Source: an uncultured Gammaproteobacteria bacterium
GTDB lineage: Bacteria; Patescibacteriota; Patescibacteriia; UBA9934
DNA: 64,000 bases
NCBI GenBank assembly: GCA_964613815.1
Contig: CAZTKG010000002.1
Coordinates: forward strand, 23,737 to 87,736
Direction of reading: 5' to 3'
Below are positions 30,835-45,334 of the stretch, piece after piece. A model generated the notes under the pieces. That model saw only the letters and a program-made list of their open reading frames with translations. It was not told the DNA's origin and searched no databases. The position numbers and the translations under genes were made by a program. Within the stretch, counting starts at the first letter, position 1. Each line of letters starts with the position of its first letter.

Positions 30835-32631
30835 ATGCTATTACAACGATTGAATCTAGCGATTCAGGTGACTGCGACGATTGTGGTTGTTTTTGCGTTT
30901 TTGTTTGGGTTTGGCGATGTTGTGTTGGCGCAGGATTTGGATGCTGTTGGAGATGCTGCAGGGCTTTCTGATGCGGGGCTTGAAGTCATCATTGGACGGA
31001 TTATCGCTGTCTTCTTAGGACTCTTGGGGATCATTCTTCTTGTGATTATCATGTATGCCGGGTATTTGTGGATGACGGCAGGAGGAAATACGGATCAAGT
31101 AGTGAAGGCGAAGAAATGGATTATTAATGGGGTGGTTGGACTTGTGATTACGTTGAGTGCGTATGTGATCGCTTCATTCATTATGAATCTTTTCTACGAT
31201 GCAGGCCTTTGGGGAGGTGGTGGCGACGGGCCGGATTCGAATCCTCCCGTTTTGGAGCCGGGATCCAACTCTCTTGGGAGTGGAGGTATTCAATCGCATT
31301 ATCCGGATCGGTATGCGACGGATATTGCTCGAAATGCGAAGGTGATGGTGACGTTTGGTACTAAGATGGCAATTGGTTCGTTTGCGAAGGGATACGATGA
31401 TAATGGGACACCTACAGATGTTAGCGACGATGTTGTTGCGACAGCGCTCAATACAGAAAATATTTTGATTTATGTTACAAGTGAAGGGGAGGAGTATGCT
31501 TTGGGTGAGGGTGATGTAGAGGTATCGTTTACGGAAGATCTGAGGACGTTTGTCTTTGACCCTTCTGCGTATTTAGGAAGTGCTACGGAGGATGTTGGGT
31601 ATACGGTGTATCTTTCTGATGATATTGAGAATTCGGATGGGGATACGGGGGATGTTGATGATGGTGGGTATTGGTGGACGTTTACGGTGGGGACTGAGAT
31701 TGATTTGACGCCTCCGCAGATTAAAAGTATTTCGCCTGCAGAGGGGCTTTCGTATGCTCGGAATATTGTTGTTGAGGTAACGTTTGATGAGGCGATTGAT
31801 CCAACAAGTGCGACGGGGACGTATGCTGCTGATGGATCTGGGAGTTTTGAAAATATTCAGATTGAAGCGGATTCTAGTGGGCTTGTGGAAGGGACGTATG
31901 TGATGAGTAATGCGTACAAAACGGTTACTTTTGTGAGTTCGGAGGCTTGTGGAACAAATAGTTGCGGGCAGACGATTTATTGTTTACCTGGTGGGGAGGA
32001 TCAGACGGTTACGGTGTTTGGTGCCACGCCTGGAACGGATAACCCTCAGATTGATGTATATCCATACGATGGAATTGGAGATGTTTCTGGCAATGCGCTT
32101 GATGCGGATGGGGACGACGCGGTTGATAGCGCTGGAGAACAATATGCTTGGGCGTTTACGACGACGAATGATTATAATGATGATGCTCCATACATCACGG
32201 CGGTTACCCCGGATGTTGCTGAGGAGGATTTGGCATTAGATGCAGATATTCTTGTGACGTTTGACTCTGTCATGATGAGTTCTACGCTTTCGAGTGAGAA
32301 CGTGGAGGTTGATAATAGTCCTGATCACGAGCTTTGGTTTTCGATTGAAAGTGAAGGGTTGGCGAGTGATGGAAGTGTTGTAGAGGATTCGAGTACGACG
32401 ATTACGAATACGCAGATGGAAGTTAACCATGGGGTGTTCTATGAGTCTGGAGATGATTTTACCTATCTGTATTCGGTTGATGTGGGTGACGGAGTTTTGA
32501 ATCAGTATCAGAATTGTTTTGTTCCTGGGGAGGGGCCTGGAGTTGGAAGTACTGAATGTGGCACAAATAATACGTATCCTTACTGCTGCCAGGGGGTTCC
32601 AAGCGCTGAGGAATGTTCGTTTTTTGAGTAA
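30835..32631 (+). CDS. secreted/surface protein (598 aa) with pilin-like N-terminal module, Ig-like beta-rich middle and Cys-rich C-terminus
   Basis: Signal peptide (cleavage VLA|QDLDAV). The mature N-terminus has two hydrophobic helices separated by MTAGGNTDQVVKAKKW. The rest is acidic and G/T/S/D-rich, ending in a Cys cluster (CGTNNTYPYCCQG...EEC). Confidence 0.85.
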   Translation: MLLQRLNLAIQVTATIVVVFAFLFGFGDVVLAQDLDAVGDAAGLSDAGLEVIIGRIIAVFLGLLGIILLVIIMYAGYLWMTAGGNTDQVVKAKKWIINGVVGLVITLSAYVIASFIMNLFYDAGLWGGGGDGPDSNPPVLEPGSNSLGSGGIQSHYPDRYATDIARNAKVMVTFGTKMAIGSFAKGYDDNGTPTDVSDDVVATALNTENILIYVTSEGEEYALGEGDVEVSFTEDLRTFVFDPSAYLGSATEDVGYTVYLSDDIENSDGDTGDVDDGGYWWTFTVGTEIDLTPPQIKSISPAEGLSYARNIVVEVTFDEAIDPTSATGTYAADGSGSFENIQIEADSSGLVEGTYVMSNAYKTVTFVSSEACGTNSCGQTIYCLPGGEDQTVTVFGATPGTDNPQIDVYPYDGIGDVSGNALDADGDDAVDSAGEQYAWAFTTTNDYNDDAPYITAVTPDVAEEDLALDADILVTFDSVMMSSTLSSENVEVDNSPDHELWFSIESEGLASDGSVVEDSSTTITNTQMEVNHGVFYESGDDFTYLYSVDVGDGVLNQYQNCFVPGEGPGVGSTECGTNNTYPYCCQGVPSAEECSFFE

Positions 32632-32633
32632 TT

Positions 32634-44294: not shown

Positions 44295-44299
44295 GGATC

Positions 44300-45334
44300 A
44301 TGAGAAAAAAGGAGAAAAAGGCTGCTTCTTCTGGTGTTTCTAACAAAGATTTGTTGGCTAATTTTGATATTCATGTCATGCCAAAGGATTTTGTTGGGAA
44401 GAAGGTTAAAGCGATTGCAAAGAGCGTGGAGCCTGTGAAGAAGGTTCCTGTGAAAAAACAGGGTGTTGCGAAGATACCTCCAAAGGTCTCGAAGGCTCCG
44501 GGTGTTTCTGGAGGCAAGAAGAGAGTGAGGGTTTGGGTGTTTGTTGGGCTGGGGGTCGCTGTTTTAGTGGTCGGGTTTGGTCTTTTCGGGTTTTTGATGA
44601 TGGACGATGACGCGCCGGTGATGGTTGTTGAGGCTCCAGAAGAAGTTGATATTGATGGAGATGGTGTTTTGAATGCAGATGATAATTGTTTGTATGATGC
44701 GAATGCGAGTCAAAGTGATCGTGATCATGATGGCTTGGGGGATGTTTGCGATGACGTTGATGATTCTTTGCCGACGGAACCGACTCCTGGCGTAGATTCT
44801 GATAGTGATGGATTGACGGATGTTGAGGAGGGGGTTTACGGTACAGATGCGCGGGATTCTGATAGTGACGGGGATTCGTTTTTGGATGGGAATGAGGTTT
44901 TTCATGGATATGATCCCGCCAGTGATGCGCCAAGCACGCTTGTTGGGGTTGAAGTAACTAAGGTTTTTTCTGCTGACGATCATGGTTTCACTGTTGAGCA
45001 TTTGATGGCGTGGCGTGTGGATGATGGTGATGAGGGAGAGAGTGATGATCGTGTATATACCTTTCGAGCAACGACTGGGGGGGAGTTTACTGTTCGTGTT
45101 TTGACAAATGTTGACGGGATGAGTTTAGCTGAATATGTTCAAAGTGATGGACTAAGTTCATTTACTTCACTTTTGGGCACAGAGGGATACATTGATCAAA
45201 ATGAGCGGTTTGTTGTTTTTGCAGGGCCAGGGAAATTTGTGGAGCTTCGATATGATGCAGAGGATTTTGATACGATTGAATATCTGCAAACATTTAAATT
45301 ATTTGTGAATAGTGTTGTTATCGATCCTGTGTGA
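44300..45334 (+). CDS. bitopic membrane protein with canonical TSP3 repeat (DxDGDGVLNADDNCxxDxNxxQxDxDxDGxGDVCD) (paralog 3); Lys-rich cytoplasmic N-terminus
   Basis: TM (VWVFVGLGVAVLVVGFGLFGFLMM). DIDGDGVLNADDNCLYDANASQSDRDHDGLGDVCDD plus DSDSDGLTDVEEGVYGTDARDSDSDGDSFLDGNEVFHGYDP, then a C-terminal beta-rich domain. Confidence 0.8.
   Translation: MRKKEKKAASSGVSNKDLLANFDIHVMPKDFVGKKVKAIAKSVEPVKKVPVKKQGVAKIPPKVSKAPGVSGGKKRVRVWVFVGLGVAVLVVGFGLFGFLMMDDDAPVMVVEAPEEVDIDGDGVLNADDNCLYDANASQSDRDHDGLGDVCDDVDDSLPTEPTPGVDSDSDGLTDVEEGVYGTDARDSDSDGDSFLDGNEVFHGYDPASDAPSTLVGVEVTKVFSADDHGFTVEHLMAWRVDDGDEGESDDRVYTFRATTGGEFTVRVLTNVDGMSLAEYVQSDGLSSFTSLLGTEGYIDQNERFVVFAGPGKFVELRYDAEDFDTIEYLQTFKLFVNSVVIDPV

Follow-up and report, generated by a model that had tools for sequence, protein, structure and literature searches.

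What does a Patescibacteria cell do with a run of five genes, one of them encoding a protein of 3,328 amino acids (aa), set among its housekeeping genes? The question arises from a 64,000-nucleotide (nt) stretch of DNA (hereafter the window; positions 23,737–87,736 of the forward strand of contig CAZTKG010000002.1, assembly GCA_964613815.1), deposited as an uncultured Gammaproteobacteria bacterium. The window is part of a Patescibacteria (candidate phyla radiation, CPR) chromosome, and Pfam matches on its open reading frames (ORFs) include parA/parB, relA, topA, dprA, der, hisS, ftsA, ftsZ, nrdR, pyk, and similar housekeeping genes. All five genes lie on the plus strand, namely g1 (30835–32631, 598 aa), g2, here also called the giant (32634–42620, 3328 aa), g3 (42625–43506, 293 aa), g4 (43542–44294, 250 aa), and g5 (44300–45334, 344 aa), with intergenic gaps of 2, 4, 35, and 5 nt; the TAA stop codon of g1 (32629–32631) is followed by the g2 ATG at 32634. 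This is the co-directional, tightly joined layout that a first-pass annotation, made by a model from the letters of the window, had placed at the same coordinates. Positions given below are those of the window, and features lie on the plus strand unless stated otherwise.

We read the locus as a conserved core surface-display and adhesion module of Uhrbacteria-type (ABY1-like) Patescibacteria, carried on VirB2-type modular pilins, and give this reading about an even chance. The case for attachment is built on the Sec signal peptides, outward topology, immunoglobulin (Ig)-like and Cys-rich stalks, distal von Willebrand factor A (VWA) domain, and acidic, putatively calcium-binding partners of the encoded proteins. 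Their domain content, predicted topology, operon-like layout, and co-conservation are direct observations and are set out in the following sections. The locus is not categorically new, in that it combines a giant surface adhesin, a modular pilin, and a CPR VirB2-like pilin, each of a known kind; a literature search found no published description of it, in agreement with the earlier remark that its organization is not a described operon type.

Conservation of the locus across relatives

A scan with one genome per species gave 101 relatives, and the best 80 loci were kept. Most of these are labelled Uhrbacteria, with a few Falkowbacteria, Magasanikbacteria, and members of the Parcubacteria group; we take all of these to belong to the GTDB class ABY1. 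In every one of the 80 species loci, the gene directly after the g1 homologue encodes a homologue of the giant; hisS and yqeY usually precede the pair, and the usual placement is between hisS–yqeY and ybeY–dgkA–ftsA–ftsZ. Where enough downstream DNA was available, the next ORF after the giant encodes a protein with a transmembrane (TM) helix and at least two thrombospondin type 3 (TSP3) motifs in 29 of 34 loci, the other five being cut short or missed by the filter. Three loci reached from the g5 side (L009, L010, and L011) carry the order giant, TSP3, TSP3, g5-like, ybeY, dgkA, ftsA, ftsZ, nrdR, pyk, and the overlap between g5 and ybeY recurs in all three. Co-conservation, on which the first-pass annotation had made its proposal depend, is borne out by these counts, with all five genes and ybeY together in the last three loci.

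Against its orthologues, the giant aligns as a single collinear high-scoring segment pair of 2,500–3,200 aa at 34–45% identity, with collinearity over ~3,000 aa (34–46%). The corresponding identities in the same genomes are 36–46% for ybeY, 46–57% for dgkA, 48–60% for pyk, and 65–75% for FtsZ. Conservation is even along the length of the orthologue alignment, and complete giants measure 2,407–3,489 aa, mostly 3,050–3,490 aa. By the measure of these alignments, the giant evolves like a housekeeping protein, under purifying selection across at least 80 species, and the cluster is a vertically inherited core feature amid housekeeping genes, not a variable adhesin island.

The wider family was delimited by an exhaustive HMMER search with a single sequence, the central domain of the window giant (described below), against 50%-identity cluster representatives. 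This domain is found in 1,318 clusters at E ≤ 1e-3 and in 1,216 at E ≤ 1e-10, nearly all of them proteins of 2,800–4,550 aa that hold it at the same relative position. Their public names are generic (“IPT/TIG domain-containing protein”, “Ig-like domain-containing protein”).

Two irregularities were seen among the relatives. The giant is truncated or split into two ORFs of 1,200–1,700 aa in L037, L040, and L051 (also L038, L061, and L089), where frameshifts, assembly errors, or real pseudogenization could be responsible. Many records with the locus are titled “uncultured Gammaproteobacteria bacterium” (L013, L014, L016, and others), and one (L031) “Candidatus Kapaibacterium sp.”; these titles look like placeholder or wrong taxonomic labels, evidently so for the Gammaproteobacteria records, since they carry the same CPR synteny.

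A pilin module shared by g1 and g2

The two largest proteins begin alike. Their N-terminal modules are 56% identical over aa 16–123 (E 7e-34), and both match the T4SS_pilin family PF18895 above its gathering score of 26.6 (34.1 bits in g1, 35.9 bits in g2), so the unusual common module noticed in the first-pass annotation is real. The same family is matched in all 14 giant orthologues searched, and some g1 orthologues also match TrbC (PF04956), weakly. Hydropathy, alignment, and, for g1, an AlphaFold2 (AF2) model give the make-up of the module: a long signal peptide with a site between AxA and Q, two hydrophobic helices, and a basic loop WMTAGG...KAKK (WMTAGGN..KAKKW in the tested copies). No type IV pilin family was matched in the N-termini of g1 and g2, and the sites are of the AxA–Q type I kind, not class III.

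In g1, the signal peptide spans aa 1–32 (30835–30930), with predicted cleavage between VLA and QD at the 30931 boundary; the AF2 model has a hydrophobic helix here (H2–26). An alignment of 42 homologues, from which we read invariance in g1 throughout, shows “AQ” conserved and A32 invariant, and the peptide is probably removed at this site. The g1 pilin module follows (30931–31200; PF18895 match at aa 48–116), with helices at aa 49–80 and 86–120 joined by the loop WMTAGGNTDQVVKAKKW; AF2 and TM predictions give a helical hairpin, and W79, M80, G84, and A92 are invariant. In g2, signal peptide (aa 1–31) and pilin module (aa 32–121) together occupy 32634–32996, with the PF18895 match at aa 48–115. 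The module is present in 92 of 94 giant-family representatives of at least 2,800 aa and is among the best-conserved parts of the giant (conservation 0.66; consensus Y.Gf.WMTAgG...kAKk). By the positive-inside rule and VirB2 topology, the hairpin loop would be cytoplasmic, with both ends outside and the large C-terminal parts extracellular.

A further gene bears on the nature of this module. In seven species (L080, L081, L082, L085, L088, L090, and L091), an extra stand-alone VirB2-like pilin is encoded between g1 and the giant. It has ~95 aa when mature, terminates exactly at the point where the linkers of g1 and g2 start, and is more similar to the giant module (36–47% identity) than to the g1 module (27–35%). 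The occurrence of this predicted pilin in one subclade shows that the modules of g1 and g2 are complete pilin units and more than hydrophobic anchors. The cluster lacks the small pilin in 70 of the 81 loci scanned, the window included. Modules of g1 and g2 are slightly more alike within a genome than across genomes (identity 0.444 vs 0.400, a difference of 0.044; higher within in 82% of 71 genomes), a faint hint of co-evolution.

Two usual features of VirB2 pilins are absent at this locus. Such pilins are small, with mature lengths of ~70–120 aa, whereas g1 has 598 aa and g2 3,328 aa. They also have virB4 or other type IV secretion system (T4SS) genes as neighbors, whereas the flanks here are housekeeping genes in all relatives, and Pfam searches of the 64-kb window found no T4SS component or other pilin on any ORF.

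The giant protein g2

The giant is rich in acidic residues (20% D+E) and contains 152 Cys. After the pilin module and a Gly-rich linker come, in order, an Ig stalk, a first block of CGDG repeats, a stretch with weak Big_5 similarity, a central domain, a second CGDG block, a VWA domain, and a short conserved C-terminal beta region. The Ig-like stalk (33081–36443) comprises Big_5/Big_7-type domains, a small Cys-knot (aa 370–412), four TIG domains (aa 416–795), and Big_5-like domains (aa 800–1270). TIG-like repeats start at aa 416, 604, and 711, and a Pfam TIG match also covers aa 519–590. Profile scores are high for TIG (94.1 bits, E 5e-27), which settles the IPT/TIG-like Ig domains of the first-pass annotation, and reach 42–48 bits for Big_5.

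Cys-rich block 1 (aa 1281–1510, 36474–37163) consists of six CGDG...C(D/E)DG...C..C units matching TIGR02232 and DUF4215, and block 2 (aa 2286–2650, 39489–40583) of seven CGDG units matching DUF4215. Overall scores are 52.5 bits for TIGR02232 (myxo_disulf_rpt; cut-off 20.8, E 3e-14, five stretches) and 29 bits for DUF4215 (cut-off 27). Counted by their CGDG starts, there are 13–14 units in blocks of 6, 7, and 1, of which 7 score strongly; the “about 15” myxococcal-type repeats proposed earlier were close to this number. TIG, Big_5, and DUF4215/myxo-type domains are each matched in 12–13 of the 14 orthologues.

Between the two blocks lies the signature of the giant family, a central domain of ~390 aa (aa 1865–2250, 38226–39383) with 35 invariant alignment columns, for which we found no sequence match in the PDB at E up to 1 and no Pfam match. 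A search of the C-terminal 609 aa of the giant against a word-indexed protein database returned no match, not even the protein itself, which is put down to the index, poorly suited to acidic sequence of low complexity, and is no evidence of absence, since the exhaustive HMMER search found more than 1,300 relatives.

The VWA domain (41076–42425) has a degenerate metal-ion-dependent adhesion site (MIDAS) and is split by an insertion in the window copy, which falls below the Pfam threshold (18.4 bits vs a cut-off of 23.8, E 0.0027). Evidence for the domain comes from the orthologues. Eight of the 14 match the Pfam VWA family at E ≤ 0.001 (best E 1.5e-9), and a profile built from 29 orthologous C-termini matches the collagen VI VWA domain in the PDB at 1.8e-16 and also VWA domains of pilus and fimbrial adhesins: SpaC (6m48, 2e-11), the GBS104 type (3tw0, 2e-7), PilB (7b7p, 1.3e-6), and Mfa5 (6tnj, 1.5e-6). 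The profile is matched by 87 of 94 near-full-length representatives. On these profile comparisons, VWA homology of the region is secure despite the degenerate window copy, and the VWA-like domain of the first-pass annotation thus stands for the family through its orthologues and stays sub-threshold in the copy on which it was based. An adhesin-type architecture with a distal VWA, also proposed there, is present, with SpaC, GBS104-type adhesins, Mfa5, and Streptococcus sanguinis PilB among the profile matches.

In most orthologues the MIDAS is intact (DxSGSM ... GGT ... DG), whereas the window copy reads DVSST, with Thr replaced by Val and Asp by Arg. A lineage-specific insertion of ~220 aa, Cys-rich and acidic, lies within the VWA of the window giant (aa ~3000–3235, 41631–42340), where conservation drops to 0.10–0.14. 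It is not present in 13 aligned orthologues; in this genome alone it goes together with two missing MIDAS residues.

The short stalk protein g1

Pfam matches in g1 comprise T4SS_pilin and Big_5. After a disordered Gly-rich linker, its ectodomain (31267–32499) is modelled as about four Ig-like beta domains, with a predicted local distance difference test (pLDDT) score >90 over most of aa 150–560 and 84 for the whole model. Foldseek matched this ectodomain only to generic Ig strings (LdtMt2 Ig domains, the S-layer protein SbsC, and cadherins), and its similarity to SbsC/EA1 is likewise that of a generic Ig string, with TM-scores of 0.11–0.15. The most invariant part of the ectodomain is a C-terminal Cys-rich knob, NQYQNCFVPGEGP...PYCC...C (32500–32628), where AF2 confidence is low; its invariant columns are N556, Y558, Q559, N560, C561, P564, G567, P568, C575, P582, C584, C585, G587, and C594. 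Homologues of g1 were detectable in 358 cases, and the best 120 are all 555–650 aa long with 45–63% identity.

The TSP3 membrane proteins g3, g4, and g5

Each of the three remaining proteins has exactly one predicted TM helix and an acidic, C-proximal TSP3 block. Protein g3 (42625–43506) has its TM helix at aa 28–46, a helical, Cys-rich ectodomain in which 12 Cys are conserved, and, at aa 226–290, three TSP3 motifs. It matches TSP3_bac (PF18884) at 29.7 bits (cut-off 25), as do 23 of 23 g3 orthologues, and its Cys columns are invariant; the helical domain has no sequence relative in the PDB or Pfam. Protein g4 (43542–44294) starts with a conserved MF..EDIF motif and a cytoplasmic tail rich in Pro and Ala; its TM helix (aa 111–129) leads to an acidic linker, three TSP3 motifs, and the conserved C-terminal peptide GYNPNGEGKLFExP. 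The protein scores 55.2 bits against TSP3_bac (cut-off 25, E 5.9e-15). Protein g5 (44300–45334) has a cytoplasmic IHVMPKxF motif, a TM helix (aa 78–96), and five TSP3-type motifs (aa 116–205). All five are DxDxDG motifs and include a canonical DxDxDGxxDxxDNC...DxDxDGxGDxCD unit; the match to the eukaryote-type TSP_3 family (PF02412) is sub-threshold (18.9 vs a cut-off of 25). Its C-terminal domain (aa 215–344) has, as modelled, a PsbP/Mog1-like fold and resembles envelope-biogenesis lipoproteins such as LpqN.

The first-pass annotation had described g3, g4, and g5 as paralogous bitopic calcium-binding proteins. Their single TM helices and TSP3 motifs hold up, with TSP3_bac above threshold in g3 and g4, and the TSP3 blocks probably bind calcium, judging from their motifs. 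Paralogy is confined to the TSP3 block of ~65 aa, outside which the ectodomains differ. The dockerin/cohesin-like tethering suggested there found no support: no cohesin or dockerin family was matched in the five proteins or the 14 giant orthologues. A dockerin–cohesin system was rejected as a classification, the repeats being TSP3_bac without a dockerin or cohesin Pfam match. Any contact between the TSP3 proteins and the giant would be pure conjecture.

Short conserved cytoplasmic motifs were also seen, MF..(E)D[IM]F at the g4 N-terminus (43542–43620) and IHVMPKxF in g5 (44366–44395), both of which recur in the orthologues of L009, L010, and L011. From their sequences, these motifs and the C-terminal peptide of g4 look like docking peptides for partners.

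Comparison with known systems

Closest to the N-terminal modules are the VirB2/TrbC-like pilins of the Patescibacteria T4SS (Wang et al. 2023, PMC10633639; Quinonero-Coronel et al. 2025, PMC12102498), which share with the cluster the PF18895 family, the signal peptide with two helices and a basic loop, the phylum, and the occurrence of tandem paralogues. Those pilins are stand-alone proteins of ~100–150 aa encoded near virB4, with ~25% identity within an array (PMC10633639, PMC12102498), whereas in the cluster the module is fused to ectodomains of 480 and 3,200 aa, is encoded amid housekeeping genes, and comes in copies that are 56% identical. In the literature on Patescibacteria VirB2-like pilins, we found no fusion of the module to a large ectodomain described.

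As a working analogy, S. sanguinis PilB (Raynaud et al. 2021, PMC8179133) is closest: as in the cluster, a linker connects a pilin carrier with adhesion modules, a VWA domain among them. The PilB carrier, however, belongs to the type IV pilins (IPR012902), has a class III signal peptide, and is assembled by type IV pilus machinery, whereas the carrier here is a VirB2/TrbC hairpin with a cargo about ten times larger. The tip adhesins SpaC, GBS104/RrgA, and Mfa5 share with the giant a distal VWA/MIDAS on an Ig-like stalk and are its best non-eukaryotic profile matches. Tip adhesins of sortase-built and type V pili attach by sortase and LPXTG or by strand exchange, whereas no LPXTG signal or sortase gene was seen in the cluster, and size and Cys-rich repeats differ.

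Giant repeat adhesins (the RTX/LapA type, the 7,651-aa protein of Mobiluncus, and Giant1–5 of Apilactobacillus) resemble g2 in being very large, secreted, Ig-rich, and multi-domain. Peribacteria encode large Cys-rich extracellular proteins with weak similarity to the Myxococcus Cys-rich repeat, a proposed role in attachment, and variation between strains (Anantharaman et al. 2016, PMC4736985). Both groups are strain-variable or repeat-expanding and use other anchors, whereas the giant described here is collinear, near-fixed in length, and pilin-anchored.

The Myxococcus gliding adhesion proteins CglB (VWA) and CglD (TSP3 and VWA) and the cohesion proteins MtsC/MtsD likewise bring VWA, TSP3, and “myxo” Cys-rich repeats together in one adhesion system. 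Their NCBIfam models (CglD, MtsC/MtsD) match only the TSP3 blocks of the cluster, at 20–36 bits vs family cut-offs of 350–800, and these proteins are outer-membrane lipoproteins of a diderm that work with the Glt machinery, which is not in the cluster. With cellulosomal dockerin–cohesin pairs, the cluster has calcium-binding DxDxDG loops in common and differs in the repeat family.

Proposed role and alternatives

From domains and synteny alone, we infer a surface location, a role in adhesion, and contacts among the five proteins. Proteins g1 and g2 would be exported via Sec, their long signal peptides then being removed, and would be kept in the cytoplasmic membrane by the VirB2/TrbC-like hairpin, with its basic loop inside and its ends outside. 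In each, the flexible Gly-rich linker would lead to a long ectodomain. That of g1 would form a short stalk of about four Ig domains ending in the invariant Cys-rich knob, and that of g2 a disulfide-stabilized rod of ~30 modules with the integrin-I-like VWA as a binding domain near its far end. Extending outward across the wall, the g2 rod would bind a conserved ligand displayed by a partner cell or by a substrate. For the bitopic proteins g3, g4, and g5 we propose calcium binding at the level of the wall and an accessory or scaffolding role; one of them has a PsbP-like protein-binding domain, and through the short conserved cytoplasmic motifs of all three the assembly could be linked with the inside of the cell. 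In Patescibacteria that have been cultivated, both adhesins and VirB2-like pilins are either essential or strongly expressed (PMC10633639, PMC10936435).

Several observations weigh against this adhesion module. Because the MIDAS is degenerate in the window copy, metal-dependent ligand binding by the VWA of this genome is doubtful. Uniform purifying selection, constant length, and a housekeeping neighborhood are unusual for a host-specific adhesin and fit an envelope role equally well; given vertical inheritance, near-fixed length, and even selection, the ligand, if any, should be conserved too. Moreover, the full pilin module is strongly conserved though a plain signal-anchor would suffice, which hints at more than anchoring. 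In another reading, which we consider unlikely yet worth weighing, g1 and g2 are true modular VirB2-type pilins, and the chromosomal Patescibacteria T4SS pulls their hairpins out of the membrane and builds them, with small VirB2-like pilins, into a filament. Proteins g1 and g2 would cap or decorate this filament much as modular type IV pilins such as PilB occupy a pilus tip. The completeness of the module (signal peptide, two helices, and basic loop) and its score above the Pfam gathering threshold, the TrbC matches of some orthologues, the stand-alone pilin of seven species, the place of the module among the most conserved giant parts, and, faintly, the greater likeness of the two modules within genomes all speak for it. 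So does the presence of VirB4 in ~2,400 of ~3,030 Patescibacteria assemblies (~80%), together with the essentiality of VirB2-like pilins in Southlakia (PMC12102498, PMC10633639, PMC12857230). Set against this are the housekeeping setting away from virB4, with neither T4SS gene nor other pilin ORF in the window, and the small pilin missing from most loci; furthermore, polymerization is not known for any VirB2-type pilin that bears a large C-terminal fusion, and a 3,200-aa appendage on a pilus subunit has no known precedent. At its fullest, this idea would make the cluster the first modular VirB2-type pilins, a T4SS-built filament or membrane pilin oligomer that has the 3,300-aa VWA adhesin and the 600-aa Ig stalk at its tip and the calcium-binding TSP3 proteins as its base, and that serves a whole class of ultra-small bacteria as a conserved host-contact organelle, a proposition that we regard as rather improbable.

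A serious rival, though again rather unlikely in our judgement, takes the five proteins for a structural envelope component and not an adhesin, for instance a coat resembling an S-layer, a spacer across the wall, or a scaffold for growth or division. It would account well for the universal, vertical, housekeeping-like conservation at near-constant length and for the conserved g5–ybeY translational overlap with dgkA, ftsA, and ftsZ next in line, although adjacency to ftsA and ftsZ may be mere inherited synteny. The g1 ectodomain is as like the SbsC/EA1 S-layer Ig strings as anything else, the PsbP-like domain of g5 resembles LpqN-type envelope-biogenesis lipoproteins, and the gene has been kept where the MIDAS has decayed, as in L065 and the window copy. 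The MIDAS is nevertheless intact in most orthologues, which points to ligand binding; no SLH, wall-binding, or S-layer family was matched by Pfam in the five proteins or the 14 giant orthologues, and a single-copy protein of 3,300 aa would be unusual as a lattice subunit. That the five genes are unrelated neighbors whose adjacency has no functional meaning is very improbable indeed. The promoter and terminator scans (see below) are uninformative on this point, but synteny strongly disfavors it: order and tight spacing are kept across genomes in which FtsZ is only 65–75% and hisS 35–55% identical, g1 and g2 have an N-terminal module in common, and g3, g4, and g5 a TSP3 block.

Genomic setting and other features of the window

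The cluster is flanked by hisS–(rpsU)–yqeY (28570–30684) and by ybeY and dgkA (45331–46117, plus strand; Pfam), with ftsA and ftsZ downstream. The ybeY start codon at 45331 begins 4 nt before the end of the g5 stop codon and overlaps it, so ybeY and dgkA are probably co-transcribed with the cluster. In Bacillus subtilis, rpsU–yqeY and ybeY–dgkA presumably share one neighborhood; in that case, the cluster would have entered a gene string that is itself ancient and conserved. A promoter-like site (CGGACA, a 16-nt spacer, and a TG-extended TAAAAT; 30784–30811, plus strand) lies 24 nt upstream of g1, with an inverted repeat immediately upstream of it; it comes from a consensus scan and is a tentative candidate. 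Promoter-like sites are not enriched in the region (30 found vs 28.1 expected from shuffles), and the terminator scan, itself no better than on shuffled sequence, found no convincing terminator inside the cluster.

Marine samples that contain this genome are ENA ERZ23498905 and JGI 3300007512. The same DNA is present in ENA and JGI metagenome contigs, the largest of 579 kb, so that the 14.5-kb cluster belongs to a genome whose largest known contig is 579 kb. Six metagenome contigs with the locus are 99.97–100% identical to the window, and population variation is accordingly uninformative.

Strand bias in the window is extreme over positions 1–58000, with a GC skew of +0.35 overall and 0.3–0.5 in most 2-kb windows and a negative AT skew, whichever way the genes point. 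For third codon positions, values of +0.60 in g2 (plus strand) and -0.735 in topA (minus strand) were obtained. GC skew at the same locus in 80 related species ranges only from about -0.13 to +0.27, and within the window it drops to ~0.02 at 58–62 kb. The bias yields many long spurious antisense ORFs.

An insertion of ~650 nt interrupts the anticodon loop of a tRNA-Met(CAU) gene (13060–13785, plus strand), for which ARAGORN made no call. Its 5' half starts at ~13060 (TGCGGGGTAGAGCAGTCTGGTAGCTCGTTGGGCT) and its 3' half ends in ...GGTTCAAATCCAGTCCCCGCAACCA at ~13785. Within the insertion are an ORF for a PD-(D/E)XK endonuclease (13120–13548; PF11645, E 1.4e-46) and the core of a group I intron (RF00028, 13521–13707, 81 bits). 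The adjoining 2.6 kb (13800–16400) are richer in GC (0.56) and have no convincing plus-strand ORF and no Rfam match, and reading TGA as a sense codon does not rescue an ORF; three minus-strand ORFs of 159–198 aa without a Pfam match are present, and the segment may hold orphan minus-strand genes or non-coding DNA.

Two further groups of large ORFs, both on the plus strand, are of interest. At 51290–54914, two ORFs lie 4 nt apart: the first encodes 600 aa and fuses Memo-like and PGA_cap (capsule synthesis) domains, and the second encodes a very acidic (20% D+E) bitopic protein of 605 aa without a Pfam match. The two may form another envelope-related gene pair. At 1770–5348, beside recO, an ORF of 1,192 aa has no Pfam match, predicted TM segment, or signal peptide, and its product is probably a large cytoplasmic protein.

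Implications

Were the pilin module polymerized, the “modular pilin” principle would extend from type IV pili to conjugative-type pili, and the T4SS of Patescibacteria, essential but functionally unexplained, would gain a role in filament assembly. Independently of that possibility, the cluster links the puzzling VirB2-like pilins of the monoderm Patescibacteria with their large Cys-rich surface proteins, two observations not connected before. It also offers experimental handles in the distal VWA, the invariant g1 knob, the 390-aa domain without known relative, and the three small, putatively calcium-binding partners.

Patescibacteria account for much of bacterial diversity, and attachment to other cells is presumed to be their way of life, yet beyond the cultivated Saccharibacteria almost nothing is known of how they make contact. 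Because the cluster costs 14.5 kb, keeps its order in every Uhrbacteria-type genome examined, and evolves at a housekeeping-like rate, it is a strong candidate for a core part of the Uhrbacteria-type lifestyle.

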